45,535 nt of DNA from an uncultured Pseudomonadota bacterium (lineage in GTDB: Bacteria; UBA10199; JADFYH01). Numbering within the stretch: the stretch's first letter is position 1; every line of letters begins with the position of its first letter. A program made the translations under genes and the position numbers. The DNA is taken from NCBI GenBank assembly GCA_964470915.1, contig CAYYEM010000003.1, positions 1 to 45,535 of the forward strand, written 5' to 3'. This document shows positions 5,090 through 34,977 of the stretch, one piece after another. The notes beneath the pieces were generated by a model. That model saw nothing but the letters and a program-made list of their open reading frames with translations, made no database searches and was not told where the DNA came from.

Positions 5090-5854
5090 ATGATCAAAAT
5101 TGAATCTTACGGAATGTCTAATGTGGGAATGAAGCGAAGCCATAACGAAGATCATTATTTAATGAATGATGATCTTCAGCTTTACGTGGTGGCAGATGGC
5201 ATGGGGGGACATTTGGGCGGAGAGTTTGCATCTAAAATGGCAGTAGCGACGGTAGAAGAAGTGGTTCAGAGACTTACAGGACCAGAAGCTCCTGTGATTG
5301 AAGGCGTGAATTCTGAAAATGTCTCGATAGGTGAAAAACTTCGTTTTGCGATTAAAGAAGCTGGTAAGCGAATTTATGATCAGTCTTTATATGATGAAGG
5401 CTTGAAGGGGATGGGAACCACAACGGTGGCTAGCTTGGTGCAGGATGGCAAGGCTTATGTGGCGAATGTGGGTGATTCAAGGGCTTATTTTGTACGGGAT
5501 GGAGAAATTCAACAAATTACAGAAGATCATTCTTTAGTCAGCGAGCAGGTGAGAGCTGGTATTTTGTCTGCAAATGATGCCAAGGGCCATCGTTTAAAAA
5601 ATATCATTACACGTTCAGTAGGTTATCAAGAAGAGGTGGATCCTGACGTCAAAATTCATGAGCTTAAAGCCGGTGATAAAATTTTAATGTGCTCCGATGG
5701 TTTGTCTAATTTAGTGGAAGATCGAGAGATTTTGGACCTGCTTTCGCAGGCTTCTTTGAAAGAGTCCTGTGAAAAACTCATTGATCTGGCCAATGAAAGA
5801 GGCGGTGACGATAATATTACAGTAGTTGTTGTGCAAGCTGTTGAAATTAATTAA
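5090..5854 (+). CDS. PP2C-family Ser/Thr protein phosphatase (Stp/PrpC-like)
   Basis: 254-aa ORF with PP2C motifs RSHNEDH, VADGMGGH, GMGTT, CSDGLSN and GGDDNITVVVV. Confidence 0.9.
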   Translation: MIKIESYGMSNVGMKRSHNEDHYLMNDDLQLYVVADGMGGHLGGEFASKMAVATVEEVVQRLTGPEAPVIEGVNSENVSIGEKLRFAIKEAGKRIYDQSLYDEGLKGMGTTTVASLVQDGKAYVANVGDSRAYFVRDGEIQQITEDHSLVSEQVRAGILSANDAKGHRLKNIITRSVGYQEEVDPDVKIHELKAGDKILMCSDGLSNLVEDREILDLLSQASLKESCEKLIDLANERGGDDNITVVVVQAVEIN

Positions 5855-11600: not shown

Positions 11601-11629
11601 GAAACTTTGCACTTTCGCTTTGCCGATGT
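11601..11629 (+). promoter_or_regulatory. Sigma-28-like promoter motif, copy 1 (upstream of sctV)
   Basis: GAAACTTT (11601-11608), N13, GCCGATGT (11622-11629), ending 22 nt before ATG 11652. This is one of four copies of AACTT-N16-CGAT. The -10 half matches the FliA consensus GCCGATAA. Confidence 0.55.
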
Positions 11630-11651
11630 AGAATGAGTAAAATCCAATTCT

Positions 11652-13775
11652 ATGTTCGATAAACTCAAATTTTCTAATATTAATGAACTCATCACCAAAT
11701 ACAGTGACTTGGTTTTGGCTGCCTTAGTCATTGTGGTTTTGAGCTTAGTGATTATTCCGCTGCCGTCTTGGCTTATCGATATTTTGCTCACTATCGATAT
11801 TGCTCTCAGTGTTCTTATTTTATTGGTCGCCCTCTATATTTCAGATGCTCTAAAAATCGCATCTTTTCCTACTATTTTATTGATGACTACCTTGTATCGT
11901 TTGTCTCTGAATATTGCAGCGACTCGTTTGATTTTGTCCGAAGGGGAAGCAGGGGAAGTTATTCATGCTTTTGGTAGTTTTGTGGTGGGAGGTAATTATG
12001 TAGTGGGGGGAATTTTATTTCTTATTATTACCTTAGTGAACTTTATCGTTATTGCGAAAGGTGCTGAACGTGTTTCTGAAGTAGGAGCTCGATTTACCTT
12101 GGATGCTATGCCTGGAAAACAAATGAGTATTGATGCTGATCTGCGTGCAGGAATTATTAATATGGAACAGGCCATGGAACGTCGCTCTATTTTGCAGCGT
12201 GAAGCTCAGATGTATGGAGCGATGGACGGTGCGATGAAATTCGTCAAAGGAGATGCTATCGCAGGTATTATTATTACTGTGATCAATATTATTGGAGGAC
12301 TGATCATTGGTGTCATGCAGCGAGGTATGGAGTTTTCCAATGCTATTCAAGCTTACACTACACTCACTATCGGGGATGGAATGGTGGCTCAAATTCCCGC
12401 ACTCATGATTTCAGTTGCGGCAGGTATTGTGGTGACGCGCGTTGCTTCTGAAAATAAAGAATCCAATCTTGGTAAAGAAATTGTAGGACAGGTCACTTCT
12501 TATCCTAAAGCAATCGTGATTACTGCGGTTCTCTTGTTTGTGATGGCCTTAATCCCAGGCTTACCTCATTTAGCTTTTTTTATTTTGTCAGGTGTTTTGG
12601 GTGCTGTTGCTTATTTTCTCACTCGTAATAAAAAAACCGAAACACAAGAGTTGGCCGAAATTCCTAAAGACCAAGTGGTTAAAAAAGCGATCGAAAAGCA
12701 TGGCGATGTTTTACCGTTTATTATGCCATCCCCTATTTCTCTTGAAGTAGGGGAGGCTATTATTCCTTGGGTGGATGATACTCAAGATGGCGGACGCTTT
12801 ATTAACGAGCTCATTCCTTTGCTTCGTCACGGTTTGTATTATGAGTTAGGGGTGAATTTTCCAGGCATACAAGTACGCGGACAAAATGTCGATATGGAGC
12901 CTGAAAGTTACATTATTAATATTAATGAGGTCCCCGTTGCCAAAGGCAGAATTTATCGAGGTTGTATTCTAGTTGGTGAGCCCTTAGAGCAGCTTTCCCT
13001 TTTTAATATTAAGGGAGTGGAAACCATTCATCCTATTGATGGCTCAATTGTTACCTGGATTGCGGAAGAGCATAAAGAAACTGCTATTCAAGCTGGGTTT
13101 AGAATGTGGGATATCGCAGAATATCTTATTTTGCATCTTTCCTATATTTTGCGAAAACATGCCCATGAATTTTTAGGCTTACAAGAAATTCAAACCTTGT
13201 TGAATGAACTTGAGAAGTCTCATCCTGCCTTGGTGAAAGAATTGGTGCCCAAGGTAATAACGGTGTTGCAACTTTCAGAAATTTTTCAGCGTTTGGTGCA
13301 GGAAGAAATTGCGATTCGAGATTTGAAGTCTATTTTTTCCACTTTAGCTCAATGGGCAGAAGTTGAAAGAAATACACTGGTTCTCACTGAACATATTCGT
13401 GCTGGACTCAAACGCTATATTACTCATCGCTATGCGGGTCACGCGAATACACTGGCTGTTTATTTACTAGATCCTGACATAGAAGATCAGGTACGCAATG
13501 CAATTCGTACAACCGAAAAAGGAAACTATTTAGCTTTAGAACCTGAAATTACCCAAGAGATTGTAGAGTCAGTCGGTAAAGAAATTGCTTCTCATCCTTT
13601 TCCACCTGGAGCACGTCCTCCAGTAATATTAACTACGGCCGAAATTCGACGTTATTTTCGAAAAATTATAGAATTGGAATTTCCGCAATTGGCTGTTTTA
13701 TCCTATCAAGAGCTTTCTGAAAATCTTCGTATCCAACCGATTGCAAGAGTGGGTTTGCAGAAACAGATGACTTAA
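11652..13775 (+). CDS. sctV: T3SS export gate protein SctV (FlhA/YscV/InvA, FHIPEP family)
   Basis: 707 aa. N-terminal polytopic membrane domain with the FHIPEP signature GAERVSEVGARFTLDAMPGKQMSIDADLRAG, followed by a large cytoplasmic C-terminal domain. Confidence 0.9.
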   Translation: MFDKLKFSNINELITKYSDLVLAALVIVVLSLVIIPLPSWLIDILLTIDIALSVLILLVALYISDALKIASFPTILLMTTLYRLSLNIAATRLILSEGEAGEVIHAFGSFVVGGNYVVGGILFLIITLVNFIVIAKGAERVSEVGARFTLDAMPGKQMSIDADLRAGIINMEQAMERRSILQREAQMYGAMDGAMKFVKGDAIAGIIITVINIIGGLIIGVMQRGMEFSNAIQAYTTLTIGDGMVAQIPALMISVAAGIVVTRVASENKESNLGKEIVGQVTSYPKAIVITAVLLFVMALIPGLPHLAFFILSGVLGAVAYFLTRNKKTETQELAEIPKDQVVKKAIEKHGDVLPFIMPSPISLEVGEAIIPWVDDTQDGGRFINELIPLLRHGLYYELGVNFPGIQVRGQNVDMEPESYIININEVPVAKGRIYRGCILVGEPLEQLSLFNIKGVETIHPIDGSIVTWIAEEHKETAIQAGFRMWDIAEYLILHLSYILRKHAHEFLGLQEIQTLLNELEKSHPALVKELVPKVITVLQLSEIFQRLVQEEIAIRDLKSIFSTLAQWAEVERNTLVLTEHIRAGLKRYITHRYAGHANTLAVYLLDPDIEDQVRNAIRTTEKGNYLALEPEITQEIVESVGKEIASHPFPPGARPPVILTTAEIRRYFRKIIELEFPQLAVLSYQELSENLRIQPIARVGLQKQMT

Positions 13776-13793
13776 AATCAGACGAAGTGAATT

Positions 13794-14870
13794 TTATTTT
13801 AAAAGAATGCTCACAATTCCAATGAGAGCAAAAAGCAGCACAAGCACTCCAACGCCAATTAATATTTTTTCTGTCATTGAAAGCCCTGTTTCTTGGGAGG
13901 GGGCTACTTGATTTTGTTTTTCCTCAGGTAAAGCTTTCGAAGCGGAATCTTCTTTATCAGCTTCGCTTTCAGCAGCATTGTTAGCTTGTTCTGCGGCTAC
14001 GGCATCTGCTTCGGCTTTTTCTTTTTCGATTTCAGCTTCTTCTTCCTCTTTTTTGAGCTTCGCTGCTTCTTCTTCCTCTTGTTTCTTTTGAGCGATTTCC
14101 ATCATTTCAGATTCACGAAGAGCTGCCTCTTTCTTTTTGCGTGAAATTTCTTCACTGATAGCATCAATGTTAATATCTTGAGGATTGCGATAGATGAGTT
14201 TGATGGTGCCTAATAAAACTTTGTCTCCATCTCGCAGTAATTTTTCAGCAACTTTTTCATTATTCACAAAACAACCGTTGCGACTATTTAAATCCATGAG
14301 CACGATGCCGCCCCATTTTTTAATGAGTTTGGCATGTCGTCTTGAAATAACAGCTTCATCTATCTGGAGACTACAATTTGGATCTCGACCAATATCTACT
14401 TCTTGTTGGGCATCATCAAAAAAGATTTTTTTTCCTTCTGCAGAACCATTTAATACTTCAAGGCTGGGAGTTGAATCTTTATCGAGTGCCTTGAGAACTT
14501 TTTTGATCATTTTAATTTCGATAATATCAGTGTCGGTGTCTTCCTCAATCGGTTTGTTTAAACCTTCTTCCAGTAGATGAAAGGCAATTTCGTAGCTTTC
14601 TATTTTGATCAGATCATTGGATCGGAGTAAGTGTTTTTCAATAGAGCGTATGCGCTTACCGTTAAGATAGGTGCCGTTGCCACTTTTGAGATCGATGAGA
14701 AAATAATCTTCAGCATCTTTGACTATTTCAGCATGTTTTCTGGAAATGCTTTTATCAGCAAGTTCAATGTCACAGGCGCCTGTTCTTCCAATGGTGATCG
14801 TATCTTGTGGAAGATTGTACACCTGTTCTTCTTGAGTTTTTTGGTTTTTAACAATCAGTCGTGGAATCAC
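13794..14870 (-). CDS. Tail-anchored protein with two FHA domains and an acidic coiled coil
   Basis: 358 aa. FHA 1: ITIGRTGACDIELADKSISRKHAEI..DLKSGNGTYLNGKRI. FHA 2: VDIGRDPNCSLQIDEAVISRRHAKL..DLNSRNGCFVNNEKV. An E/K/A-rich segment is followed by a single C-terminal TM ILIGVGVLVLLFALIGIVSILL. Confidence 0.85.
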   Translation of the reverse strand: MIPRLIVKNQKTQEEQVYNLPQDTITIGRTGACDIELADKSISRKHAEIVKDAEDYFLIDLKSGNGTYLNGKRIRSIEKHLLRSNDLIKIESYEIAFHLLEEGLNKPIEEDTDTDIIEIKMIKKVLKALDKDSTPSLEVLNGSAEGKKIFFDDAQQEVDIGRDPNCSLQIDEAVISRRHAKLIKKWGGIVLMDLNSRNGCFVNNEKVAEKLLRDGDKVLLGTIKLIYRNPQDINIDAISEEISRKKKEAALRESEMMEIAQKKQEEEEAAKLKKEEEEAEIEKEKAEADAVAAEQANNAAESEADKEDSASKALPEEKQNQVAPSQETGLSMTEKILIGVGVLVLLFALIGIVSILLK

Positions 14871-14885
14871 TTAGACCAGCCTTTA

Positions 14886-16082
14886 CTATTTGCACTGCAC
14901 TGCTTGTCCTACTTTTTGTTTTTCATTTTCAAATTCTTTTGGAGCTTCCTTGATAAAGCGGCATAAAAACTTTTCTGCTTCGGAGCGGTTGCCCATTTCA
15001 CCTTCAAGCAGTCCAAGTGCAAGTAAACTACGATAATGGTTAGAATTCATTTGTAATGCTTTTGCATACCATTCTTTTGCTCCAGCATTATTTCCCATTT
15101 TTTTAAAGGTGAATGCGAGATTGTAAGCTGCATCTGCATTGCGTCCATCGAGTCCAATTGATTTTTGAAAATAATCAATCGCAGCTTGATAATTAGATTG
15201 TGCTAATTTCAAAAGGCCTAAATTGTAATAAACGGCGCTGTTACCAGGCTCTGATTGCAACGCGAGATTAAGCTCTTGTTCAGCTAGGGGGTAATTTTTT
15301 TCGTTTATGTAATGGGCCCCCAGCATTAAATGTGAAGTGGAGCTATTGGGCTGATTGACCATCGCGCGATTTAAAGCTTCTTGTGCCTTCGCAACATTGC
15401 CTTGTTTCTGATACAGTTGCGAAAGAGCAAGCCATGCTTCAGGACTGTTTGGATTCGTTTCGACCGCCACTTTAAAGCGAATGAGCGCATCTTCAAGTTG
15501 TCCTTGTTCCATATAAAGATGACCCAGTTCTAGAGAAGCAAGGTAGTAATTGGGGCTAGCTTCAGTGGCTCGTTTGAAAGCATCAATGGCGTCTTTGGTT
15601 CGATTTTTTTGATTAAACTGAAGGACCTGAGTTTTGTAAGCTAAGCCTAGATTGTAATAAGCATCGGCGTATTTTTTATTGGCGGAAATGGCTTTCTTGA
15701 AGCAACTAATTGCTTTGTCGTAATTGCCTTGAGCGGCATAGATAGTGCCCAAGCCAGTCCAGGCACCTGCATACTTTCCATCGATTTTGAGAGCTTGGTT
15801 ATAAGTTTCAATGGCCTTTTCATATTCTTTTTTATGTTTGTAGGCGAGTCCTAGGTTGTTCCAGGCTTCCATATATTCGGGTGAAATTTCAATCGCTGTT
15901 TTAAATTCAAAAATCGCTTTATCAATTTGCTGTTGGGTGAGGTATTGGGCGCCCAAATTGTTATGATAAACAGCACGGTTTTGGGGTCTCACAATATATT
16001 TTGATTGTAGCGGGCTTATCCAAGAAAACACGAAACAAGTGGTGAAAAGTAAAGATAATAAAAAGAAGTTAATTTTTTTCAT
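14886..16082 (-). CDS. Secreted/lipoprotein TPR-repeat protein
   Basis: 398 aa. N-terminal signal sequence MKKINFFLLSLLFTTCFVFS, then about 9-10 TPR units (repeated ..A...Y..AL...P....A..NLG..Y... pattern). Confidence 0.8.
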   Translation of the reverse strand: MKKINFFLLSLLFTTCFVFSWISPLQSKYIVRPQNRAVYHNNLGAQYLTQQQIDKAIFEFKTAIEISPEYMEAWNNLGLAYKHKKEYEKAIETYNQALKIDGKYAGAWTGLGTIYAAQGNYDKAISCFKKAISANKKYADAYYNLGLAYKTQVLQFNQKNRTKDAIDAFKRATEASPNYYLASLELGHLYMEQGQLEDALIRFKVAVETNPNSPEAWLALSQLYQKQGNVAKAQEALNRAMVNQPNSSTSHLMLGAHYINEKNYPLAEQELNLALQSEPGNSAVYYNLGLLKLAQSNYQAAIDYFQKSIGLDGRNADAAYNLAFTFKKMGNNAGAKEWYAKALQMNSNHYRSLLALGLLEGEMGNRSEAEKFLCRFIKEAPKEFENEKQKVGQAVQCK

Positions 16083-16105
16083 AGGATGTTAAAAAAAAGT
16101 AAAAA

Positions 16106-16134
16106 ATTATAGATTTCAAAAGGCTAATCGTCAA
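16106..16134 (-). promoter_or_regulatory. Sigma-70-type promoter for the TPR / double-FHA operon
   Basis: On the minus strand: TTGACG (16134-16129), a 17-nt spacer, then TATAAT (16111-16106), upstream of start codon 16082. Confidence 0.5.
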
Positions 16135-16242
16135 GGAATTATCGTTTATTTTATTTGCAATATCAATGTTTTATGTTAATTTTTCATAAAGTATAAGTTG
16201 GATTTTTTTTTAATCTTTAAGTAGTAAAGGCTTTGTTTATTC

Positions 16243-18411
16243 ATGAAAGGTTCCTCTAAATCACCCCTAGAAGAAGCAACTCTAATCAAAGCTTTCAATG
16301 ACTTTGAAAAACCCAAGGATATTTCCCGAGGTGCAGATGCTTATCCTCTTTTAGAGATTGTTACGGGCCCGAAGCAAGGTAGCTGGTTTACCTTAACTCA
16401 TCAGAAGGAAGTCTCGCTGGGTCGTGCTAATGTCAATAGTATTGTTTTGGAAGATAATAGTGTGTCTCGTTCTCATGCGGTGATTCACGAGTTAGAAGGA
16501 AAGTATTTTGTTAAGGATGTAGGTTCTCGAAATGGCACTTTCGTGAATGAGAAAAAAATTCAGGAAGATTTTCAACTCAAACAAGGCGATTTAGTAAAGG
16601 TTGGTATTTATACACTTCGTTTTTTAAAAGATCAGAGTGGCGATTTGCCTTTGGTCGAAGAAGTTTCAGAGCCATCTGTTCCTATTGATAAGTTGGATGC
16701 CCAAGTTTCAGAAGCCCATTTAGATTTAGAAGCGATTGAAAAAGCAGCTTCTGAAGATCAAGGGGAAGTGGCAGAAGATAAAACTAATCGAGAAGAGATC
16801 CCCGAATCTGCAGCGCCCTCTCAAGAAATGGAAATGGTAGAATCCCGTCCTGAAGCTGTAAGTCAGTCTAAAGGTGGAAGTAGGGCACTTAAAAATTTGA
16901 GCTACTTGTTGGTAACTCTTATTTTACTAGGAGGGGTGGGGTATACCTTTTACCGTTTTTATATTAAGAAAAGAATTACATCGGTACAAACAACTGCGAA
17001 TACAGATAATCCTGTGAATGAAAATCCTGTCCAGCAAGCGCCTGTAGTTCAAACGCCCGAACAAATCACTCAACAGTTGCCTCCTGTTCAGGCAGGCCCT
17101 AGCGTCCCAGTATTTTTAGAGGTGAATGCAGAACCTCTTCAAGCAAAGATTTTTTATCAGGGAAAAGAATTAGGTCTTACACCTTTTAAAACAAACATTA
17201 CAGTTCCTGTGGGAGCGCCTCAGGAGCTCGTTGCCGTTTATCATTTCCAAGAATTTAATCAGGATTTTAGCGAGAAGAAAACTTTTACAGTCTCTCAACA
17301 GGATGAGTTGATTAAGGTTGATTTTATAGGTTCTGTTGGGAGCTTAAATTTTAAAAGCTTACCCAAAGATGTTCAGCTTTATCTTGAAGGGACTTTTTCT
17401 TCCAATCAACTTAAAACCCAAGCTTCAAAGCTAACGGACATTGTTTATAATCGTCCGATTCATCTCCCTTTTGGGAATTATACATTAGAAATGAAAAAGC
17501 CAGAAGCTTTAGAAGGCTCTCAAACAGTAGTGGATGTGGTAAAGTTTAGAAGAGAGTTTGCTCTTTCAAAGGAAAGTCCAACTTTTGATTTATCTCTTAC
17601 AGATCAAGATGTGAGTGTGTTTCCTGCAAAGATTAAAACAAGCCCAGAAGGTGCTGAGGTCTTGGTTGATGGAAAAAAGATGGGAGAAACCCCCTATGAT
17701 GGAAATCTTCCTTTAGGAAAACATAAGCTTGTTCTCAAAAAAGAAGGTTTTTACGACCATGAACAAGAACTCTCCATGACGATGAATACGCCTTTTAATG
17801 CAGAAGTGCCTTTACGAACTTCTGAGGCAGGAGCTTTTATAAATAGAGGGAGAGATCTGATTAGACAGGGTCAATATGCACAAGCGATTGATCAATTATC
17901 AGAAGCTTTAAAGCATAATCCTTCAGAACAAGAAGTTGCGCAAATACAAGTTTTGTTAGGTTCATCTTATATTAAGACGGGAGCCTATGATGTCGCGATC
18001 GGTTATTTTGAAAAAGCTAAGCAAAATGAAACTTATAAGGGACAAGCTGACTTAGGTATCGCAGAAGCAAGTTTTGCGAATGGTAAAAAAGATATCGCTA
18101 TTTCACGTGTGATTGATGTGATTTTAAATGATAAAAATGAAAAAATAAAATCAGACGCGGAAACTTTGTTTCATAAAATCTCTCCTCTAAAATCTGTTGT
18201 TTTGGTGAGCACTGATCCTCCTGGAGCAAAAATAACTTTGAATGGTCAGGAAATTTCTCAGCCTAGTCCCATTGTATTGTCAGATTTATCTTTGGGTTCT
18301 TATCGAGTCAGTATTGAAAAGGAAGGGTATAAACGCTTTGAAAGCCGTTTCCAGTTAGTTGTTTCTAGCTTTAAGCCTGTTGTGGTGAAGCTTGAACCAC
18401 TTCCCCAGTAA
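16243..18411 (+). CDS. FHA - TM - PEGA-domain - TPR membrane protein (candidate SctD-like scaffold)
   Basis: 722 aa. N-terminal FHA (VSLGRANVNSIVLEDNSVSRSHAVI..DVGSRNGTFVNEKKI), acidic linker, TM LSYLLVTLILLGGVGYTFYRFYI, Pro/Gln-rich spacer, several PEGA-type beta domains (IKTSPEGAEVLVDGKKMGETPY..GKHKLVLKKEGF; VSTDPPGAKITLNGQEIS..GSYRVSIEKEGY) and TPR repeats. Confidence 0.8.
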   Translation: MKGSSKSPLEEATLIKAFNDFEKPKDISRGADAYPLLEIVTGPKQGSWFTLTHQKEVSLGRANVNSIVLEDNSVSRSHAVIHELEGKYFVKDVGSRNGTFVNEKKIQEDFQLKQGDLVKVGIYTLRFLKDQSGDLPLVEEVSEPSVPIDKLDAQVSEAHLDLEAIEKAASEDQGEVAEDKTNREEIPESAAPSQEMEMVESRPEAVSQSKGGSRALKNLSYLLVTLILLGGVGYTFYRFYIKKRITSVQTTANTDNPVNENPVQQAPVVQTPEQITQQLPPVQAGPSVPVFLEVNAEPLQAKIFYQGKELGLTPFKTNITVPVGAPQELVAVYHFQEFNQDFSEKKTFTVSQQDELIKVDFIGSVGSLNFKSLPKDVQLYLEGTFSSNQLKTQASKLTDIVYNRPIHLPFGNYTLEMKKPEALEGSQTVVDVVKFRREFALSKESPTFDLSLTDQDVSVFPAKIKTSPEGAEVLVDGKKMGETPYDGNLPLGKHKLVLKKEGFYDHEQELSMTMNTPFNAEVPLRTSEAGAFINRGRDLIRQGQYAQAIDQLSEALKHNPSEQEVAQIQVLLGSSYIKTGAYDVAIGYFEKAKQNETYKGQADLGIAEASFANGKKDIAISRVIDVILNDKNEKIKSDAETLFHKISPLKSVVLVSTDPPGAKITLNGQEISQPSPIVLSDLSLGSYRVSIEKEGYKRFESRFQLVVSSFKPVVVKLEPLPQ

Positions 18412-18424
18412 AAATTCCCTTTCC

Positions 18425-18453
18425 TTGACGCTTGATTTGTAAAAAGTTAAAAT
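18425..18453 (+). promoter_or_regulatory. Sigma-70-type promoter upstream of the 95-aa ORF
   Basis: TTGACG (18425-18430), a 17-nt spacer, then TAAAAT (18448-18453). Confidence 0.5.
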
Positions 18454-18499
18454 TACTTAAGTTTTTTTCAATTACTTTACTTAAATTGAAAGAAAGGTT

Positions 18500-18787
18500 G
18501 TGTTTGTGGCGACAGCTCCTAAAAAAGAAGATTCTAGCATGGTGGGTTACCCACGTATTGAACGTCTCATAGATACGGAAGAATTTGATTCTGTAAATAA
18601 GAGCTTTGCCTCTGCCTATGGTGAATTGGAGAAGGTAGCTCGTCAAAAAGCAGGTCTTGGAAAAGCTAAACAGGCTAAAAAAGCTATGAGAACTTATGAG
18701 CTTGTAATGGATTTATTGAAAGAATTGTTAAAACTTAAGTACCAAATGCAAGAAGCGTTAAAACAACAAGAAACTCAAAAAAAGTAA
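18500..18787 (+). CDS. Small basic helical hypothetical protein (start uncertain: GTG 18500/18506 or ATG 18539)
   Basis: 95-aa ORF, K/E/Q-rich and predicted helical, directly upstream of the first needle-like gene. AAAGG at 18493-18497 favours GTG 18506. Confidence 0.4.
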   Translation: MFVATAPKKEDSSMVGYPRIERLIDTEEFDSVNKSFASAYGELEKVARQKAGLGKAKQAKKAMRTYELVMDLLKELLKLKYQMQEALKQQETQKK

Positions 18788-18797
18788 GAAGTCTAAC

Positions 18798-18826
18798 ACA
18801 ACTTTTAAGTCAGGCATTTACGATAA
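18798..18826 (+). promoter_or_regulatory. Sigma-28-like promoter motif, copy 2 (upstream of Gly-rich needle-like gene 1)
   Basis: ACAACTTT (18798-18805), N13, TACGATAA (18819-18826), ending 50 nt before ATG 18877. It shares the invariant AACTT-N16-CGAT. Confidence 0.5.
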
Positions 18827-18876
18827 CTGAAACGAAGGGCCATAAGGCTTGTAAGACTTAAGTAGGAGATCAAAAA

Positions 18877-19428
18877 ATGCCAGGTTATTCATACGATTCA
18901 AGTTTTTCTCCCATCGATCCATCAGCGACACGGGAATACGTAAGCTCTGGAAACAGAGGTTATAGCCCGACTGAAGGCTTGTTCTCTTCTCTCTATAATA
19001 ATTTAATTGGGCCTACAGCCATGGCTGGAGCTAGTTATATGGCATCAGCGCCTGGAAGTGGTTTGTTTGGTCGACAGGTGGTGGCTGCAGCCATTTCTGG
19101 TGCTGTCGGTGGTGGTAATGGTGGTGGTACAATGGGGGGCGGTTCTCTTCGCGGAAACTTTATTGGAGCTCCTCCTCCTCCCCCAGGTATGGGATCAGGT
19201 GGTGGTGGTATGCCTGCTCCTCCTACTTTTGGCGGTGGGGCTTCAGGCGCAGGTTTTGGGCCTGATGCTATGCAAGGCAATATTGATGCTATGTTTAATA
19301 ACAATATGATGTTTTTGATGATGCAAACTAAAGTTCAAAACTTGAGTCAACAAATGCAATCAATCTCTAACATCTTTAAAGCAGATCACGATGCTCGTAG
19401 TAATGCGATTCGTAACTTTAGAAGCTAA
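18877..19428 (+). CDS. Gly/Pro-rich protein with needle-subunit-like (SctF-like) C-terminus, paralogue 1
   Basis: 183 aa with strong RBS TAGGAG. Low-complexity Gly/Pro core containing GGGSLRGNF and PPPPPG. C-terminal helix ..QSISNIFKADHDARSNAIRNFRS resembles the ..KVFKDIDAAIIQNFR end of PrgI/MxiH. Followed by a strong terminator. Confidence 0.65.
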   Translation: MPGYSYDSSFSPIDPSATREYVSSGNRGYSPTEGLFSSLYNNLIGPTAMAGASYMASAPGSGLFGRQVVAAAISGAVGGGNGGGTMGGGSLRGNFIGAPPPPPGMGSGGGGMPAPPTFGGGASGAGFGPDAMQGNIDAMFNNNMMFLMMQTKVQNLSQQMQSISNIFKADHDARSNAIRNFRS

Positions 19429-19457
19429 TTGTTCGAAATCATTCTTGAAATTAAAAA

Positions 19458-19487
19458 GGGTAGCAATAAAATTGCTACCCTTTTTTT
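19458..19487 (+). terminator. Rho-independent terminator after needle-like gene 1
   Basis: GGGTAGCAAT (19458-19467), loop AAA, ATTGCTACCC (19471-19480), followed by T7. Confidence 0.85.
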
Positions 19488-19535
19488 CATTCATCAGGTA
19501 TTTTAAGTGTATTAACTTAAAGGGAGGTTTTATTC

Positions 19536-28048: not shown

Positions 28049-29002
28049 ATGAAATTCGACGAAAGTACAGAAAAAGCGATTAAACCTTTTCATTTTTCAG
28101 GAATTAAGAAGTTAAGTCGTCATGATCTTGAAATTGAAAATGCGCTTTTGAATTATTTGCCCTTTTCACTGGAAACAGGTTTGAAAAAGGAGCTCGAAAC
28201 TTTTTTGTCTAAACAATTTAATCAAGAGGCCCAGATCGATCTGGAAAAAATTGAAGAAAGTACTTTAGCTAAATTTGTTTCTTCGGTGCCTCCTATTTCT
28301 TGGGTTGCGGTCTTAGGTATGGAGCCTGTTTCTCATAAGGCTTTTATGTGGTTTGATTCGGTCTTAGCGCATTCATTGGTAGATCGAGTTTTGGGAGGAT
28401 CTGGAGAAACACCCGCTGAAATTAAATCTCCCACTTCGATTGAAGAAGGCGTATTTCAATACCTCATTCTTAAAGTGCTTTCTTTTGTTTTTCAAGTTTC
28501 AGGACCGGCAGAGCCTGTTCATTTTCGTTTGGAGCAAATGATTAAATCTCAAAAAGAGCTGATGAATTTTGGAAACGATGATACTCCCGTGCTTCGCTTA
28601 AGTTTTAAGGTTCAGATAGGCTCTAACATAGGTTTTGTAGTGCTGGTTCTGCCTCATCCTTTAATTGAAGCACGTTTTTTACAGAGAGAGATGATTCATT
28701 CAAAAGAAGGAAGCCCTGAGTTTGAATATACTCAAAATAGATTTTCCAAAATGGGTTACGTTAAAACTCAGATGTGGGCTGAGGTAGCATCAGTTACTCT
28801 TACTTTAGCTGAAAAAAATCAGCTTGAAAAAGATGATGTGATTTTATTTGATCATTCCGCTTGTAGTTTAAGTGCAGGACGATTGCAGGGGAATGTAGTT
28901 TTGAGGATTGGGGAAGGTAGAGAAGGGGGCTTTTTAGCCCAGGTCATTTCTACAGATTCACCTTCGCTAGTCAAAATTCTTGATTATTATGGAGGCGATT
29001 AA
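28049..29002 (+). CDS. sctQ: Cytoplasmic sorting-platform / C-ring protein SctQ (FliM/YscQ family) with C-terminal SpoA domain
   Basis: 317 aa. C-terminal SpoA-like segment MWAEVASVTLTLAEKNQLEKDDVILFDH..VVLRIGEGREGGFLAQV. Its stop overlaps the next start (TAATG). Confidence 0.75.
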   Translation: MKFDESTEKAIKPFHFSGIKKLSRHDLEIENALLNYLPFSLETGLKKELETFLSKQFNQEAQIDLEKIEESTLAKFVSSVPPISWVAVLGMEPVSHKAFMWFDSVLAHSLVDRVLGGSGETPAEIKSPTSIEEGVFQYLILKVLSFVFQVSGPAEPVHFRLEQMIKSQKELMNFGNDDTPVLRLSFKVQIGSNIGFVVLVLPHPLIEARFLQREMIHSKEGSPEFEYTQNRFSKMGYVKTQMWAEVASVTLTLAEKNQLEKDDVILFDHSACSLSAGRLQGNVVLRIGEGREGGFLAQVISTDSPSLVKILDYYGGD

Positions 29003-29409
29003 TGGCTAAACAACCTGATGAGTTTGATATTGCAGATTTTGATGCGGGAGGCGACTCGTTCGAAGTTAATGAGGGGCAAAGTTATGATCCTGCTCCAGGA
29101 GATATGCCACCTCCTAATACCCCCCCCTCTTATTCCGCTCCAGCTTCGAGTACAGGGAAAGCATCGAATATCGATAAAAAAGTAGTGAATTTAACTTCAG
29201 ATATTCCTGTTCAGGTGGTGGCTGTTTTAGGTAAAAAAAATGTCACCGTGAAAGATATTGTTTCGATGAAAATGGGACAAGTCTTGGAGCTGAATAGATT
29301 GCCCAATGAAGCCATCGATTTAGTTGCCAATGGAAAATTGATTGCCAAAGGTGAGTTGGTTGAAATTGAAGGTCGTTTAGGGGTTCGAGTTTTAAAAATA
29401 TTTGATTAA
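29002..29409 (+). CDS. fliN: FliN/SctQ-C (SpoA domain) protein as a separate gene
   Basis: 135 aa. Acidic/Pro-rich N-terminus, then the classic SpoA domain IPVQVVAVLGKKNVTVKDIVSMKMGQVLELNRLPNEAIDLVANGKLIAKGELVEIEGRLGVRVLKIF. Confidence 0.9.
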   Translation: MAKQPDEFDIADFDAGGDSFEVNEGQSYDPAPGDMPPPNTPPSYSAPASSTGKASNIDKKVVNLTSDIPVQVVAVLGKKNVTVKDIVSMKMGQVLELNRLPNEAIDLVANGKLIAKGELVEIEGRLGVRVLKIFD

Positions 29410-29438
29410 TGAACAGCGAATAATAACGGGGTTTTCAA

Positions 29439-29801
29439 TTGCTGAATCTTTTTTTGTTGGCTGAAATAATTCCAGAATCACTTCCTCAAAATTTGGCGGG
29501 ACTTGAAAGTTCGGTCGATTTTACCTGGATGTTTGTGAAAGTGATTTTAGTGTTGGCTTTTGTTTGTCTTATTGCTTTTGCTGTGATTAAATATCTCCTA
29601 CCGAAAGCATCTTTTATTAAGCAAGGGCATGATTCTCAAATTGAATTGGTAGAACGTTTTGCATTAGAGCCTCGAAAAAGTTTATATATTTTAAAAGTAG
29701 GATCTAGATTTTTACTTTTGGGGACAAGTGAAAACACGCTCAGCCCCTTGATGGAGTTGAGCAAGAAAGATCTATCACGTGAAACTTCTCAAGAAAATTA
29801 A
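29439..29801 (+). CDS. FliO-like single-pass membrane protein
   Basis: 120 aa. TM FVKVILVLAFVCLIAFAVIKYLL, then IELVERFALEPRKSLYILKVGSRFLLLGTSENTLSPLMEL, which parallels E. coli FliO ..LGARERVVVVDVEDARLVLGVTAGQINLLHKL. Sits directly upstream of, and overlapping, sctR, as fliO-fliP does. Confidence 0.55.
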   Translation: MLNLFLLAEIIPESLPQNLAGLESSVDFTWMFVKVILVLAFVCLIAFAVIKYLLPKASFIKQGHDSQIELVERFALEPRKSLYILKVGSRFLLLGTSENTLSPLMELSKKDLSRETSQEN

Positions 29802-30567
29802 TAATAAATCAGTTCGCTTTGCTAGTTTGGTTTTTGTTTCTCTCTTGCCGCTTGTTTTGTGGGCAACTGCGGTTTGGGCCCAAGGTAAAAATGAGCAACA
29901 GCTTTCCAAGCCTCTGATTATTCTTTTTGCGCTCTCTATTCTTGCCTTAGTTCCTATTTTGCTCATCATGATGACTTCTTTTATCAAGATTACTGTGGTG
30001 CTTGCCTTGGTGAGAAATGCTTTGGGGACTCAACAGATTCCGCCCAACCAAGTCATTACTGGTTTGGCCATTATTTTGACTATTTATATTATGTCGCCTA
30101 TTGGAATTGAGGTGTATCGGAATGCACAAGGTTTGATCGATCAAACTTCGAGTGAAGGTTTTTTTTCTCAGGCAAGTATTAGTATTGTGATGGAAGGTCT
30201 TAAAAAAGGGGAAGAGCCTATTCGGGGATTTTTGGTTAAGCATGCGAGCGAAAAAGATAGAAGCTTGTTTTACAATTTAGCTAAAAAAATGAGGAAAGCA
30301 GAAGATAGAGATCAAGTGAAAGACAACGATTTTCTAATTTTAATTCCTTCTTTTGTGGTGAGTGAGTTGGCGCGTGCTTTTCAAATAGGTTTTATTATTT
30401 TTCTTCCATTTTTGGTGATCGATATGGTGGTGGCGAATGTGCTCCTTTCTTTGGGAATGTTTCAATTATCCCCTGTCACGGTTTCATTACCCTTTAAATT
30501 GCTTTTGTTCGTATTAGTGGACGGATGGTATTTGATCGCGAAAGGTTTGGTATTAGGATATACTTAA
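29779..30567 (+). CDS. sctR: T3SS export apparatus protein SctR (FliP/YscR family), with N-terminal signal-peptide-like extension
   Basis: 262 aa (start GTG 29779 or a downstream TTG). Signal-like VRFASLVFVSLLPLVLWATAVWAQG. FliP signature ILLIMMTSFIKITVVLALVRNALGTQQIPPNQVITGLAIILTIYIMSP. Confidence 0.9.
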   Translation: MKLLKKINNKSVRFASLVFVSLLPLVLWATAVWAQGKNEQQLSKPLIILFALSILALVPILLIMMTSFIKITVVLALVRNALGTQQIPPNQVITGLAIILTIYIMSPIGIEVYRNAQGLIDQTSSEGFFSQASISIVMEGLKKGEEPIRGFLVKHASEKDRSLFYNLAKKMRKAEDRDQVKDNDFLILIPSFVVSELARAFQIGFIIFLPFLVIDMVVANVLLSLGMFQLSPVTVSLPFKLLLFVLVDGWYLIAKGLVLGYT

Positions 30568-30570
30568 AAA

Positions 30571-30837
30571 ATGGAAAATTATCTTATCTCCATTTCAAAG
30601 CAGGCACTTTACCTCGTTCTCATCCTTTCAGCCCCTTCTGTAGGGATTGCGATGATCGTAGGTTTGATTATTTCTTTAATTCAAGCGACGACACAAATTC
30701 AGGAACAAACTCTAACCTTTGTGCCTAAACTTATTGTAGTCATGGTAGTGTTAGCTTTGACAGGTCCATGGTGCATGGTTCAACTCATTAACTTTACCCA
30801 AAATATTCTCGATCAATTCCCAAGATACATTAAATAA
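30571..30837 (+). CDS. sctS: T3SS export apparatus protein SctS (FliQ/YscS family)
   Basis: 88 aa, two hydrophobic helices. LILSAPSVGIAMIVGLIISLIQATTQIQEQTLTFVPKLIVV is the FliQ family pattern. Confidence 0.9.
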   Translation: MENYLISISKQALYLVLILSAPSVGIAMIVGLIISLIQATTQIQEQTLTFVPKLIVVMVVLALTGPWCMVQLINFTQNILDQFPRYIK

Positions 30838-30849
30838 ACAGGTAAAATT

Positions 30850-31674
30850 GTGGCAGCAAGTCCTCAAAGTTTAGCTCCTTATATCGATCTTGATTTGACC
30901 TTTTCTTTTATTGCGGGAGGTTTAATTGCTACTCGTTTACTGGTAGCGATTAACCTTACTCCTTATATTGGGGGACGTCCTGTTCCTGGTACGGTACGTG
31001 CTGCAACAGCCTTTGCGCTTACTTTATTTATGTATCCTCTGATTGTGCCTGGGATTGATCGAAATGCAGTGCCACGGGAAGCTTTTTTATTGGTAGTGCT
31101 GTTTTTAAAAGAAGCCATGTTTGGTCTATTAATGGGCTTGGTAAACCAGATGATTTTTTATGGAATTCAATCCGCTGGTAACATGATCGATAACCAACGC
31201 TACGTCGCGAATGCACGAATATTTAATCCTGCCTTGGGTGCTCAAGCTTCTATTTTTGGTCTTTTTATGTATCAGCTTGTAATTGCCATTTTTTTATCTA
31301 TCGGGGGTCATCGTCTTTTTTTGAGTGCTTTGATGGAAAGTTTTCAGGCAGTTCCCTTATTGACACTTCCAAGCATGGGGCAGGGGATTACTCCGATGAT
31401 TGATTTAATGCTTAAACTTTCAGCAGATACTCTTATCATTTGTTTACAACTTTCAGCACCAGTTCTCATTGCTATCTTTGTGGCAGATTTAGTTTTAGGG
31501 ATCACGAATCGCATCGCTCCTATGATCAATGTGTTTGAAATGAGCTTCAATATAAAGGGCTTTGTGGGCGTTTTATTGGTCTATTTAGCCCTTCCTCTCA
31601 TGATTTATCAGACCAAGGTATGGTTTCAGCAAATGGTCCATACCTTTCAAAAAATTACCGATTTTTTCCATTAG
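30850..31674 (+). CDS. sctT: T3SS export apparatus protein SctT (FliR/YscT family)
   Basis: 274 aa, polytopic, directly after sctS, with a GTG start. The composition and position are typical of FliR/SctT. Confidence 0.85.
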   Translation: MAASPQSLAPYIDLDLTFSFIAGGLIATRLLVAINLTPYIGGRPVPGTVRAATAFALTLFMYPLIVPGIDRNAVPREAFLLVVLFLKEAMFGLLMGLVNQMIFYGIQSAGNMIDNQRYVANARIFNPALGAQASIFGLFMYQLVIAIFLSIGGHRLFLSALMESFQAVPLLTLPSMGQGITPMIDLMLKLSADTLIICLQLSAPVLIAIFVADLVLGITNRIAPMINVFEMSFNIKGFVGVLLVYLALPLMIYQTKVWFQQMVHTFQKITDFFH

Positions 31675-31758
31675 CTTCCCTTGCGGGATATTGATTTTCA
31701 GATTAAAATAAGAGTGTTTGCCCTGATGTAAAAAAGGGTAAATTTTGAAGCTTTTCAA

Positions 31759-31787
31759 GCAACTTAGCTCTTTTTTGCAACCGATAA
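31759..31787 (+). promoter_or_regulatory. Sigma-28-like promoter motif, copy 4 (upstream of Gly-rich needle-like gene 2)
   Basis: GCAACTTA (31759-31766), N13, ACCGATAA (31780-31787), ending 73 nt before ATG 31861. It shares AACTT-N16-CGAT. Confidence 0.5.
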
Positions 31788-31860: not shown

Positions 31861-32889
31861 ATGACCGCTCCAGTTTCAGGTAATAGAAACCGTAATAATC
31901 CAGTGGATAATACTTCTAATCGTCGTTCTCATTCAGGACGTGCGGCAACCCAAGAAGAATCCAGTCAGGTTCAATCGAGACCAGGAAATCGCACAGATTT
32001 AAATTCAGTTCCACGTAATGAAATTCAGCAAGCCATTGCAAATGCACAAATGATGGGTTCGGGTGTTGCTGAAATTTGGGTGAATGGTGAGCTTTTATTT
32101 TTCCCTTTAAATAGTTTACAAGGCTGGGGTTTTCCAACGGAGATGAATCAGCAAATGGCGAGTATGGGAGATGTTGAAATGCCTTATGAAGAAGAATTTA
32201 TGGAAGGTCATCAGCAAGTTTGGGGAGAAGGTGAAGTGCAGGGTGGAATGATGGGTGGAAGTCTCCGTGGCAATATGAACAGTGGCATGGGTGGATCAGT
32301 GAGAATGGGTTTTGGTGGCTACAATCCTTATGGTGGAGACACAGGTTATGGTGGAATGAGTCAAAATCAGTTTATGTGGGATACTATGGTGGGTGGACAA
32401 ATGAGAGAAGAACTGTATGCCCAACGCCAAAATATGCGTCGAGTAGAACATCAGATGAAAGTGAAAATGCGGATTATTATGTTTTTAATCCTGATGGGAG
32501 ATGTAGTGGGTGCGGTTCGCCAGATGGTTTTTGAATCGGAACGACAAAATAGAATGTTTAATCGTTTGCTCGTGAAACAACTCAATAAGGTTAGAGAATC
32601 TAAGTCCAAAGTTTTATTAGCAATGGCTCGCAAGAGTCCTCCAACCGCACATGATAATACTAACAATCCTTCAGGAGCTGCGAGAGATCAAAATAGGCAA
32701 GCAAAATATACTCAATGGGTTTCTGTAACGACCCAGTTGATGAGTGAATTGCAAAACACAGAACGTCAATTGACCGATTTGCTTTCAGAAGGTCGCCGCA
32801 ATATCAACGAAATGTGGGAAGCTTATTCAGGATTAAAAGAATCTGAAGCTCGAACAACACGTACGGTGATTCAAAGCTTTAGAGCTTAA
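31861..32889 (+). CDS. Gly/Met-rich protein with needle-subunit-like C-terminus, paralogue 2
   Basis: 342 aa, RBS AAGGAG. Polar N-terminus. Gly/Met-rich core containing GGMMGGSLRGNM. Hydrophobic stretch MRIIMFLILMGDVVGAV. Helical C-terminal region ending ..EARTTRTVIQSFRA. Confidence 0.65.
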   Translation: MTAPVSGNRNRNNPVDNTSNRRSHSGRAATQEESSQVQSRPGNRTDLNSVPRNEIQQAIANAQMMGSGVAEIWVNGELLFFPLNSLQGWGFPTEMNQQMASMGDVEMPYEEEFMEGHQQVWGEGEVQGGMMGGSLRGNMNSGMGGSVRMGFGGYNPYGGDTGYGGMSQNQFMWDTMVGGQMREELYAQRQNMRRVEHQMKVKMRIIMFLILMGDVVGAVRQMVFESERQNRMFNRLLVKQLNKVRESKSKVLLAMARKSPPTAHDNTNNPSGAARDQNRQAKYTQWVSVTTQLMSELQNTERQLTDLLSEGRRNINEMWEAYSGLKESEARTTRTVIQSFRA

Positions 32890-32907
32890 TGAATGGGATG
32901 AGTTTTT

Positions 32908-32944
32908 AAAAGGCGGCATTCTCAAAAAGAGGCCGCCTTTTTTA
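32908..32944 (+). terminator. Rho-independent terminator after needle-like gene 2
   Basis: AAAAGGCGGC .. 14-nt loop .. GCCGCCTTTT, with stem GGCGGC (32912-32917) / GCCGCC (32932-32937), followed by a T run (32938-32943). Confidence 0.7.
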
Positions 32945-33001
32945 TGGATGTTCTTTGATAGATATAGATGTCTCTCCGTAGGAGATCCGATGAAAAAGGT
33001 T

Positions 33002-33019
33002 GCGGCTATTATTCTGCAA
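33002..33019 (+). promoter_or_regulatory. Candidate sigma-54 (-24/-12) promoter upstream of TPR chaperone 2 and needle-like gene 3
   Basis: gcGGCtattattcTGCAa, with GG at 33004-33005 and GC at 33016-33017 (GG-N10-GC spacing) and a TGCA -12 element. This is only a partial match to TGGCAC-N5-TTGCW. Confidence 0.3.
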
Positions 33020-33064
33020 TGATAGCATAAGATCTCTATATTATTGAAGAAAATGGAGGTTTTG

Positions 33065-33694
33065 ATGCCTAGCGATGATTCCTTTGATCCAGAAGCGGGT
33101 TTAAGCCCAGCAGAGCTTGAAAAAGAGCGTCTTCAGGAAGAAAAGGAAAAAAATGAAAACCCGGAGCTTTGGCAGAAGAATAATGAGTGGCTTGCCAAAT
33201 TTTCGGAAGCGCTAGATAAAATCAAACCTGAAGAGGCTGAAAAAGCAGTTCATTTAGTCGAACGCTTTATTGAAGGCGAGATTACTTGGGCAGAACTTCA
33301 AGCACTTCCTCCCGCCTTACTTTTTCAAATGGCAGAATATGGTTATCTTCAATTTCAACGTGGAAAATTTTCGGAAGCGGAAACCATTTTTAAAGGCCTG
33401 TCGGTTTTGGATCACAAACGAGCTTATTACCATACAGTGCTAGGAGCAATTTATCAACGTATGGATAAACTAGGAGATGCTCTCGCAGAGTATACAGTCG
33501 CTATAGAAATGGATCCAAAGAATATTGCTTCTTATGTGAATCGGGGAGAAATTTATTATCGCTGTGGTTACATTGATGAGCCGATAGAGGATTTTGAAAA
33601 AGCGATTGCTTTAGATCCTCAAGGAAAAGATCCTTGGGCCAATCGGGCGCGGTTTTTAAAAAATCTCGTCTTGCAGGAATCGCAAAGTAGTTAG
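33065..33694 (+). CDS. TPR chaperone, LcrH/SycD (class II) family-like, copy 2, with acidic N-terminal extension
   Basis: The ORF track starts at TTG 33044, but ATG 33065 lies 5 nt after GGAGG (33055-33059). ELQALPPALLFQMAEYGYLQFQRGKFSEAETIFKGLSVLDHKRAYYHTVLGAIYQRMDKLGDALAEYTVAIEMDP parallels LcrH/SycD ..LYALAFNQYQSGKWDDAQKIFQALCMLDHYDARYFLGLGACRQSLGLYEQALQSY. Confidence 0.8.
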   Translation: MPSDDSFDPEAGLSPAELEKERLQEEKEKNENPELWQKNNEWLAKFSEALDKIKPEEAEKAVHLVERFIEGEITWAELQALPPALLFQMAEYGYLQFQRGKFSEAETIFKGLSVLDHKRAYYHTVLGAIYQRMDKLGDALAEYTVAIEMDPKNIASYVNRGEIYYRCGYIDEPIEDFEKAIALDPQGKDPWANRARFLKNLVLQESQSS

Positions 33695-33705
33695 GGAGTT
33701 TTTTT

Positions 33706-34878: not shown

Positions 34879-34977
34879 AATTTGCATGAGTGATGAAGTG
34901 ACGATTTGCTTTCATGCCTATTTAGATAATTTAGTAATTGTTTGATTTTATAATTTGTTTCTTAGAAAATTAATAAC

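Follow-up and report, generated by a model that had tools for sequence, protein, structure and literature searches.

The dedicated sigma factors known so far are of the extracytoplasmic function (ECF) type in the case of type III secretion systems (T3SSs), with HrpL and BtrS as the examples, and FliA in the case of flagella. Here we describe a locus in which both are combined. It lies in a 45,535-nucleotide (nt) stretch of contig CAYYEM010000003.1, from an uncultured bacterium of the lineage UBA10199 (the whole stretch analysed is called the window in what follows), and the element in question is a bipartite box, G[CA]AACTT-N16-CGATAA, that precedes genes of a T3SS cluster. This box is probably the promoter of a regulon specific to the secretion system, and the RNA polymerase that reads it would carry a FliA/WhiG-like sigma factor encoded in the cluster itself (22087-22872).

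In the Hrp1-type cascade of Pseudomonas syringae, Erwinia and Dickeya, HrpR/HrpS stand above HrpL and HrpL reads the hrp box, whose consensus is GGAACC-N15/16-CCACNNA. This cascade resembles our locus in having a sigma factor encoded with the T3SS, in the sigma-54 and enhancer-binding protein placed above that sigma factor (the HrpL gene depends on both; PMC2957411), and in a bipartite box with an AAC-type -35 element before T3SS and substrate operons. It differs in that HrpL is an ECF sigma factor with CCACNNA as its -10 element, whereas here we find a group 3 FliA/WhiG-like sigma factor with region 3, CGATAA, and a candidate activator with an FHA domain. At the sequence level, therefore, a sigma-54-type promoter and an enhancer-binding protein are present in the cluster, while an ECF sigma factor and an hrp box are not. 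The host differs as well, as ours belongs to an uncultured non-proteobacterial lineage with a flagellum-like T3SS, for which no secretin gene was found in the window or in the fetched flanks and no SctU/FlhB gene in the window.

The flagellar sigma-28 factors (FliA, SigD and WhiG), which recognize TAAA-N15-GCCGATAA, are the closest relatives of the cluster sigma factor, and their promoters share its -10 core and its geometry. They serve the lowest tier of a T3SS hierarchy and drive exported filament-type subunits, with a sigma-54 tier above them, as in the FleQ/FlrA and FlgR systems of polar flagellates. In contrast to the present case, they read TAAA, carry an ESRVSQ helix, have flagellin targets and work with FlgM, and the SctV and SctJ proteins of our cluster are of the non-flagellar type. 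Similarly, the promoters of Escherichia coli sigma-E (GGAACTT, a spacer of about 16 bp and a -10 element TCAAA) have a near-identical -35 heptamer at a similar distance from the -10 element, and the arginine R176 of sigma-E has a counterpart in the cluster sigma factor; the difference is that our -10 element, like domains 2 and 3 of our sigma factor, is of the sigma-28 and not of the ECF kind. The sigma-28 of Chlamydia is another FliA-family sigma factor in a non-flagellated bacterium that bears a T3SS, with an E. coli-like promoter, and chromatin immunoprecipitation sequencing found it bound only at hctB and tsp, not at T3SS genes (PMC12282069). Lastly, Bordetella has an injectisome-dedicated sigma factor, the ECF protein BtrS, and a T3SS-exported anti-sigma factor, BtrA, a pair that provides an earlier example, outside flagella, of anti-sigma control coupled to secretion (PMC10732220). 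Our sigma factor is not of the ECF type, and the candidates for an anti-sigma factor, the open reading frames (ORFs) ORF118 and ORF167, are candidates by position only.

The preliminary description of the window had listed four sites, all on the + strand and 22-73 nt before start codons, and reading the sequence confirmed their coordinates, strand and distances. They are given here, distances to the start codon being counted from the end of the -10 hexamer:

18798..18826, + strand: P1, ACAACTT-N16-CGATAA, 22.7 bits, 50 nt upstream of ORF183; predicted transcription start at about 18834
20907..20935, + strand: P2, GAAACTT-N16-CGATAC, 23.6 bits, 24 nt upstream of ORF167; predicted transcription start at about 20943
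31759..31787, + strand: P3, GCAACTT-N16-CGATAA, 24.9 bits, 73 nt upstream of ORF342; predicted transcription start at about 31795
11601..11629, + strand: weak candidate site, GAAACTT-N16-CGATGT, 12.3 bits, 22 nt upstream of sctV

The invariance of AACTT and CGAT at one spacing was also borne out, as AACTT-N16-CGAT matches the window exactly four times (starts 11603, 18800, 20909 and 31761) and has no match on the - strand. In dinucleotide-preserving shuffles of the window the mean was 0.46 matches, and none of 100 shuffles reached four. When the window was scanned with a weight matrix at a threshold of 12 bits, no fifth site came up, in agreement with the earlier statement that there were no further copies. 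One could still ask whether the four sites are a coincidence of composition noticed after the fact. The pattern comes from the same four sites, and each half is common on its own in this AT-rich window (AACTT 98 times on the + strand and 115 on the - strand, CGATAA 17 and 16 times); a conserved SctL peptide, discussed below, also mimics the motif in some genomes. Since the pattern was fixed only after the sites had been seen, the independent test is conservation in relatives.

The comparison set consisted of 50 loci (732 kb) from uncultured metagenome-assembled genomes labelled 'Deltaproteobacteria', UBA10199 and similar, which were retrieved through an 18-member alignment of homologs of the cluster sigma factor. 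With a spacer of 16 there were 63 matches on the + strand and 3 on the - strand, and each of the other spacers from 8 to 25 gave 0-8 matches on the + strand. Sites of at least 18 bits numbered 78 on the + strand versus 1 on the - strand. These matches extend the consensus to G[CA]AACTT-N16-CGATAA, in which positions left free by the search are conserved nevertheless: the G two bases 5' of AAC in 87% of cases, a C or A one base 5' in 98%, and the final AA of CGATAA in 98% and 91% (CGAT itself being imposed by the search). A T follows the AACTT box in 66% and CGATAA in 52%, the GC just 5' of the CGATAA core is conserved in 45-51%, and 14 spacer positions hold about 0-0.4 bit each. Moreover, when the regions upstream of ORF167 orthologs (n = 14) were aligned with the motif left out of account, conservation of 85% or more was confined to CGAAACT, CCGATAA and the ribosome-binding site.

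The sites also recur at the same places. One of at least 18 bits is present at the P1 position, after the ORF95 ortholog and before the ORF183 ortholog, in 19 of 21 loci (the P1 site was found in the metagenome loci L052, L061 and L063 too), at the P2 position, after SctJ and before the ORF167 ortholog, in 14 of 17, and at the P3 position, after SctT and before an ORF342-like gene, in 9 of 27. Motif sites lie 16-95 nt 5' of the start codons of orthologous genes. All mapped non-coding sites of this strength are at T3SS-cluster positions, and all are on the + strand except one, which is cluster-adjacent (L043); none lies in the roughly 9.8 kb of non-T3SS flank that each of L035, L038 and L041 carries. 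At 18798, 20907 and 31759 the boxes are kept upstream of orthologous genes and the spacers have diverged. Because these three boxes hold orthologous positions, with one spacing and on one strand, while their spacers drift, they are conserved functional elements. The shuffles, the enrichment at one spacer and one strand in independent genomes, and the orthologous sites with diverged spacers leave chance as a barely credible account of the four window sites; it is refuted for 18798, 20907 and 31759 and is possible only for the sctV site at 11601.

One recurrent match was rejected as a coding coincidence. In nine loci the motif occurs in the 3' end of sctL, 24-59 nt before sctN. These matches stem from the conserved peptide DAQLxTQLxAIK, whose Leu, Ala and Ile codons vary freely, and the window copy is unmatched. 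The C-terminal peptide of SctL (window 25166-25210; L002 13079, L013 13413, L020 13245 and others) is thus a trap for motif scans.

The fourth site precedes the export gate gene:

11652..13775, + strand: sctV, export gate, 807 bits against TIGR01399 (hrcV), cutoff 692

Its low score is owed to the -10 sequence CGATGT. The sigma-centred loci end inside sctV, and the sctV upstream regions compared (n = 11) were drawn from a metagenome scan with SctV. The boxes are kept in two of the 11, L052 and L061, in the form GGAACTTT-N13-GCCGATGT; the two upstream sequences are identical to each other, their SctV is 95% identical to that of the window, and the spacer has diverged from the window's. They are absent from L051, with an SctV of 96% identity, and from the eight other regions, and in five of these nine the upstream coding sequence (argJ in the window) extends to sctV. 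The site also overlaps a sigma-70-like sequence, TTTGCA-N17-TAGAAT. The preliminary description had suggested a regulon that covers both secretion substrates and the export gate: the first half is plausible, as discussed below, and the second is undercut by a site that is weak and lineage-specific.

As regards the class of the promoter, the sigma-28 open complex of Pseudomonas aeruginosa contains the elements (-36)TCTAAAG(-30) and (-15)GCCGATAA(-8) (PMC12784957). Setting CGATAA at -13 to -8 places our upstream box at -36 to -30, which is the -35 position of sigma-28, and the layout of a 7-mer, N14 and an 8-mer is common to the P. aeruginosa fliC promoter and to G[CA]AACTT-N14-nnCGATAA. Given this identical geometry, the spacer is not 2 bp longer than that of sigma-28 promoters, as had been proposed; it is the -35 sequence that differs, at the same place. 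The -10 half does resemble that of sigma-28, as the earlier reading had it, with the CGATAA core of GCCGATAA at the right position and the upstream GC weakly kept. At about -34 to -30, where sigma-28 promoters have TAAA(G), the heptamer G[CA]AACTT stands instead. Classical sigma-28 patterns were tried and rejected: TAAA-N15-CGATAA and AAAGTT-N14-CGAT have no match in the window and are at background level in the loci, with 2-3 matches in the 732 kb for patterns of the TAAA-N15 type.

The ECF -10 elements take forms such as CGT or TCAAA, and neither is what we find in the CGATAA half of the box. The ECF -35 elements described by Lane and Darst consist of an upstream G, AAC and then a T-tract (PMC1540707), and this, not that of a shifted AAAGTTT, is the form of G[CA]AACTT. 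The putative promoter is accordingly a hybrid, with an ECF-like -35 and a sigma-28-like -10 element.

It would be very unlikely for the boxes to be a bipartite transcription-factor site, or an activator-dependent sigma-70 promoter with the unusual -10 element GATAAT. When a T follows CGATAA, GATAAT does match TATAAT at five of six positions, and the overlap of the sctV site with a sigma-70-like sequence counts on the same side. The sigma-70 reading of the boxes was nevertheless rejected on account of the invariant C-G before ATAA, which puts a G at the critical -12 T position, and of the hexamer 17 bp upstream (CAACTT), which matches TTGACA at none of six positions. As for a factor site, the two halves are neither repeats nor palindromes, unlike most such sites, and a single spacing, a single orientation and a distance of 16-95 nt to start codons are promoter-like.

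The sigma factor to which we would assign the boxes is the following:

22075..22872, + strand: cluster sigma factor, FliA/WhiG-like, group 3; best family TIGR02479, PDB matches WhiG and FliA

Translation probably begins at the ATG at 22087, which is preceded by GGGAGGAG, and homologs start with MSQSAAQ. No second sigma factor was found in the window. This one is syntenic with its presumed targets across the phylum, and its family has more than 1400 members in metagenomes. The claim that the cluster encodes a FliA-family sigma factor stands in so far as FliA/WhiG (TIGR02479) is the best-scoring family, with 132.9 bits against 83 bits for SigB/F/G, and has to be qualified in so far as the cutoff is 189.6 bits. 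The chlamydial sigma-28 model NF004572 gives 98.5 bits, below the general FliA/WhiG model, and the best PDB matches are WhiG 6pfv and the FliA structures 9wsf, 6pmi and 1rp3 (P. aeruginosa, E. coli and Aquifex). The 265-amino-acid protein aligns along the full length of FliA and WhiG, region 3 included, and does not have the ECF architecture of domains 2 and 4 only.

In P. aeruginosa sigma-28, reading of the extended -10 element falls to R97 and that of the -35 element to S224 and Q228 in region 4.2, and the flipped -11A is held by D66 together with Y76 (PMC12784957). Residues were mapped by alignment to 9wsf_A, with the offset verified on D66, Y76, I79, R82, R97, R101, S224 and Q228. The comparison with FliA residues, which had been proposed earlier for regions 2.4 and 4.2, gave a different answer for each half. 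The -10 residues, which belong to regions 2.3 to 3.0, are retained, with D84 for D66, F94 for Y76, and R115, within GWIPRS (W-x-PRS in FliA), for R97. Among the -35 residues S224 is kept as S234, while Q228 and Q232 are changed to R238 and R242 and R223 to W. The region 4.2 helix reads SKSWTSRLHAR here, as against ESRVSQLHSQ in Pseudomonas and E. coli and ESRVSQIHTK in WhiG, and thus departs from the ESRVSQ(L/I)H of FliA. None of the mapped -10 and -35 residues varies among 18 family members. Sigma-E R176, a residue shared by all ECF sigma factors, recognizes the G upstream of AAC, and S172 recognizes the base after that G (PMC1540707). When BLASTP aligns the cluster sigma factor with sigma-E, the query numbering runs 66 ahead of that of sigma-E, and R242 falls on R176 and R238 on S172; six residue identities in the sigma-E sequence used agree with PMC1540707. 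A hybrid promoter is therefore matched by a hybrid sigma factor, and from this we infer that the cluster sigma factor reads the boxes.

Another alternative sigma factor encoded elsewhere, most plausibly an ECF one, could in principle read the boxes, and we regard this as unlikely. G[CA]AACTT comes close to GGAACTT, the consensus for sigma-E (PMC1540707), the spacing is ECF-like, and the known T3SS-dedicated sigma factors HrpL and BtrS are of the ECF type (PMC2957411 and PMC10732220). The -10 element is the sigma-28 core CGATAA, with its final AA conserved at 91-98%, neither the window nor the conserved cluster encodes an ECF sigma factor, and the cluster sigma factor already carries the matching combination of features.

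Several points weigh against the assignment of the boxes to the cluster sigma factor. The search for the motif and for sigma factors was confined to the window and the loci, and the regulon may be wider. The loci were picked via the sigma gene, so that the co-occurrence of sigma factor and motif is partly a matter of construction. The sigma factor scores under the curated FliA/WhiG cutoff, and its invariant recognition helix leaves no covariation between sigma factor and motif to exploit. R115, the counterpart of the residue that reads the GC of GCCGATAA, is conserved, yet the GC itself is kept in only about half of the sites. Finally, the sctV site, weak and confined to a lineage, does not conform to the pattern of the other three.

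If the assignment to the cluster sigma factor is right, its domains 2 and 3 would read CGATAA as sigma-28 does, at -13 to -8, with the A at -11 flipped and transcription starting about 8 nt downstream. Domain 4 would sit at -36 to -30, the usual sigma-28 position, and its helix, diverged from ESRVSQLHSQ to SKSWTSRLHAR, would read the ECF-like heptamer G-AAC-TT in place of TAAA. Transcription of the sigma gene itself would start at a conserved sigma-54 promoter, with an FHA-domain enhancer-binding protein as the probable activator. The proposed cascade would thus run from the activator and sigma-54 to the cluster sigma factor, and from there to ORF183 (with a TPR protein and SctJ), to ORF167-ORF118, and to ORF342-TPR-ORF390-TPR. 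Such a system could serve as a natural experiment in which substitutions in region 4.2 re-target -35 recognition with -10 reading held fixed.

The genes downstream of the three strong sites are these:

18877..19428, + strand: ORF183, P1 target, with a Gly/Pro-rich middle and a conserved C-terminal 50 amino acids
19536..19955, + strand: TPR protein (Pfam TPR)
19961..20863, + strand: SctJ lipoprotein (Pfam YscJ_FliF; TIGR02544 137.9 bits, under cutoff)
20960..21463, + strand: ORF167, P2 target, no known domains
21497..21853, + strand: ORF118, P2 target, no known domains, directly 5' of the sigma gene
31861..32889, + strand: ORF342, first gene after P3, in a probable P3 operon
33044..33694, + strand: TPR protein, probable P3 operon
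33706..34878, + strand: ORF390, between two TPR genes, probable P3 operon
34978..35574, + strand: TPR protein, the last gene of the probable P3 operon (span 31861..35574)

The TPR proteins at 33044 and 34978 are paralogs of the one at 19536, and each of the Gly-rich proteins ORF183, ORF342 and ORF390, which carry a GGSLRG(N) motif, is followed by one of the three. This pairing resembles the substrate-chaperone arrangement of T3SSs, and the target genes, which encode no known domain, are plausible secretion substrates. Since the gap between the TPR gene and sctJ is 5 nt, P1 probably drives the structural gene sctJ too, in which case the regulon is not purely one of substrates. The preliminary description had called ORF183 and ORF342 needle-like. 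The C-terminal 50 amino acids of ORF183 are almost invariant in the alignment (…SNIFKADHDARSNAIRNFRS), hhalign pairs its last 36 amino acids end to end with PrgI (E 0.0017, probability 15%), and one ORF183 homolog has a precomputed PF09392 annotation. As phmmer and profile searches against the PDB and Pfam scans of 20 members gave no support for a needle identity, 'needle-like' is at most a weak lead for ORF183. For ORF342 the label is not supported: neither it nor ORF390 has detectable homology to ORF183, with which they have only the short GGSLRGN-type motif in common.

Regarding the P2 targets, the position of ORF118 is kept and its sequence evolves fast, with a mean column identity of 26% among the proteins found there, and the AlphaFold model of ORF167 is uninformative (predicted local distance difference test score 51). 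ORF118, ORF167 and the small ORF95 upstream of P1 have no match in Pfam or NCBIfam, FlgM included, and no anti-sigma factor was identified among them; likewise, no FlgM domain at E <=0.01 turned up among the small ORFs of the cluster, for which the window and the loci were searched. It is tempting to speculate that the logic of flagellar control has been kept, from a sigma-54 tier to a FliA-derived sigma factor to exported filament-type subunits, perhaps with ORF118 or ORF167 as an exported FlgM-like anti-sigma factor, and with the reading of the -35 element re-tuned to an ECF-like AAC by the Gln-to-Arg changes in region 4.2. We consider this larger scheme doubtful. If it were true, the locus would represent a present-day intermediate stage between flagellar and injectisome control, and a natural case of modular re-wiring of sigma specificity.

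The control of the sigma gene is suggested by its surroundings:

22003..22018, + strand: sigma-54-type promoter, TGGCATGTTTAGTGCA, about 70 nt 5' of the sigma gene
35577..37004, - strand: sigma-54 enhancer-binding protein (Pfam Sigma54_activat 1.6e-70, N-terminal FHA, HTH_8)
37031..39559, - strand: Ser/Thr kinase with a PEGA domain
5090..5854, + strand: PP2C phosphatase
13794..14870, - strand, and 16243..18411, + strand: further FHA proteins, one with PEGA and TPR domains

In 40 of 47 loci a sigma-54-type GG-N10-GC element precedes the sigma gene, nearly always as TGGCA[CT]-N6-TGCA, where chance would give an estimated 0.16 loci or so per 450 nt for the pattern used. Orthologs of the enhancer-binding protein adjoin the sigma gene, upstream and divergent, in the deep-branching loci L020, L042, L043, L046 and L050, and this FHA-domain protein is probably the activator of the sigma gene. 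The Ser/Thr phospho-signalling genes around the T3SS suggest phosphothreonine recognition as the switch of the cascade. A second sigma-54-like match, TGGCATAGTCTATGCT at 40329-40344, is at chance level and lies 317 nt 5' of a 539-amino-acid ORF (40661-42280) that has no family match and no homolog in the loci; 22003 is the only convincing sigma-54 site in the window.

Two features lie directly downstream of the sigma gene:

22905..23390, + strand: ORF161, 32 nt 3' of the sigma gene, with no box of its own in the window
23413..23441, + strand: intrinsic terminator, 13-bp stem and T run, right after ORF161

ORF161 has no Pfam, NCBIfam or PDB match. Its identification as the inner rod protein SctI, a guess from its C-terminal pattern, found no support in those searches and was set aside. 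The window has no box in the gap between the sigma gene and ORF161, and 9 of 48 loci do, including the following:

L006 1590, L007 10499, L008 850, L009 10816, L015 4159, L016 3584, L017 834, L020 10698: box between the sigma gene and ORF161

Together with P2, which would drive the two genes just 5' of the sigma gene, the box found before ORF161 in the nine loci would fit feedback control. In that subset of loci it would add positive feedback on the gene 3' of the sigma gene. The terminator, whose hairpin is kept in close loci, closes the unit of sigma gene and ORF161 before the structural operon that runs from the fliG-like gene to sctT, and between it and the fliG-like gene, about 10 nt from the latter, lies a TATAAT-like hexamer. 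With a terminator and such a hexamer, the structural operon seems to have its own promoter and a very short leader; there is a weak case for a sigma-70-like one.

The order of genes in the loci is conserved: FHA, TPR, FHA/PEGA protein, ORF95, ORF183, TPR, SctJ and ORF167, then a fast-evolving ORF of about 120 amino acids, the sigma gene, ORF161, FliG-like, SctL/N/O/P/Q, FliO-like and SctR/S/T. The machinery is of mixed character. SctR passes the yscR cutoff, SctN passes those of both SctN and FliI_clade2, and SctJ and SctT have best matches under cutoff; flagellum-like parts are a FliG-like protein (23484), FliH/SctL, a FliK-like, a FliM-like (28049), a FliN-type and a FliO-like protein (29439). 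The region 11652-31674 may thus be a deep-branching T3SS of mixed character, comparable to the 'Myxo' group of Abby and Rocha. In the literature searched, no paper was found that pairs UBA10199 with type III secretion, and the paper on the origin of the non-flagellar T3SS does not mention a sigma factor or FliA (PMC3459982). A FliA-like sigma factor in a T3SS cluster of non-flagellar type, with a sigma-28 -10 element, an ECF-type -35 element and a sigma-54 tier above, would be a new combination, with a bearing on how regulation travelled with the machinery as injectisome-like systems evolved from flagella. G[CA]AACTT-N16-CGATAA could moreover be used as a marker of the regulon when secreted substrates and effectors are sought in this uncultured phylum.

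A last feature stands just upstream of P1:

18500..18787: ORF95, small, conserved, without a known domain

ORF95 could encode a co-chaperone or a regulator. Its identity between loci is as high as about 90%, and a sigma-70-like sequence, TTGACG-N17-TAAAAT, precedes it at 18425-18453.

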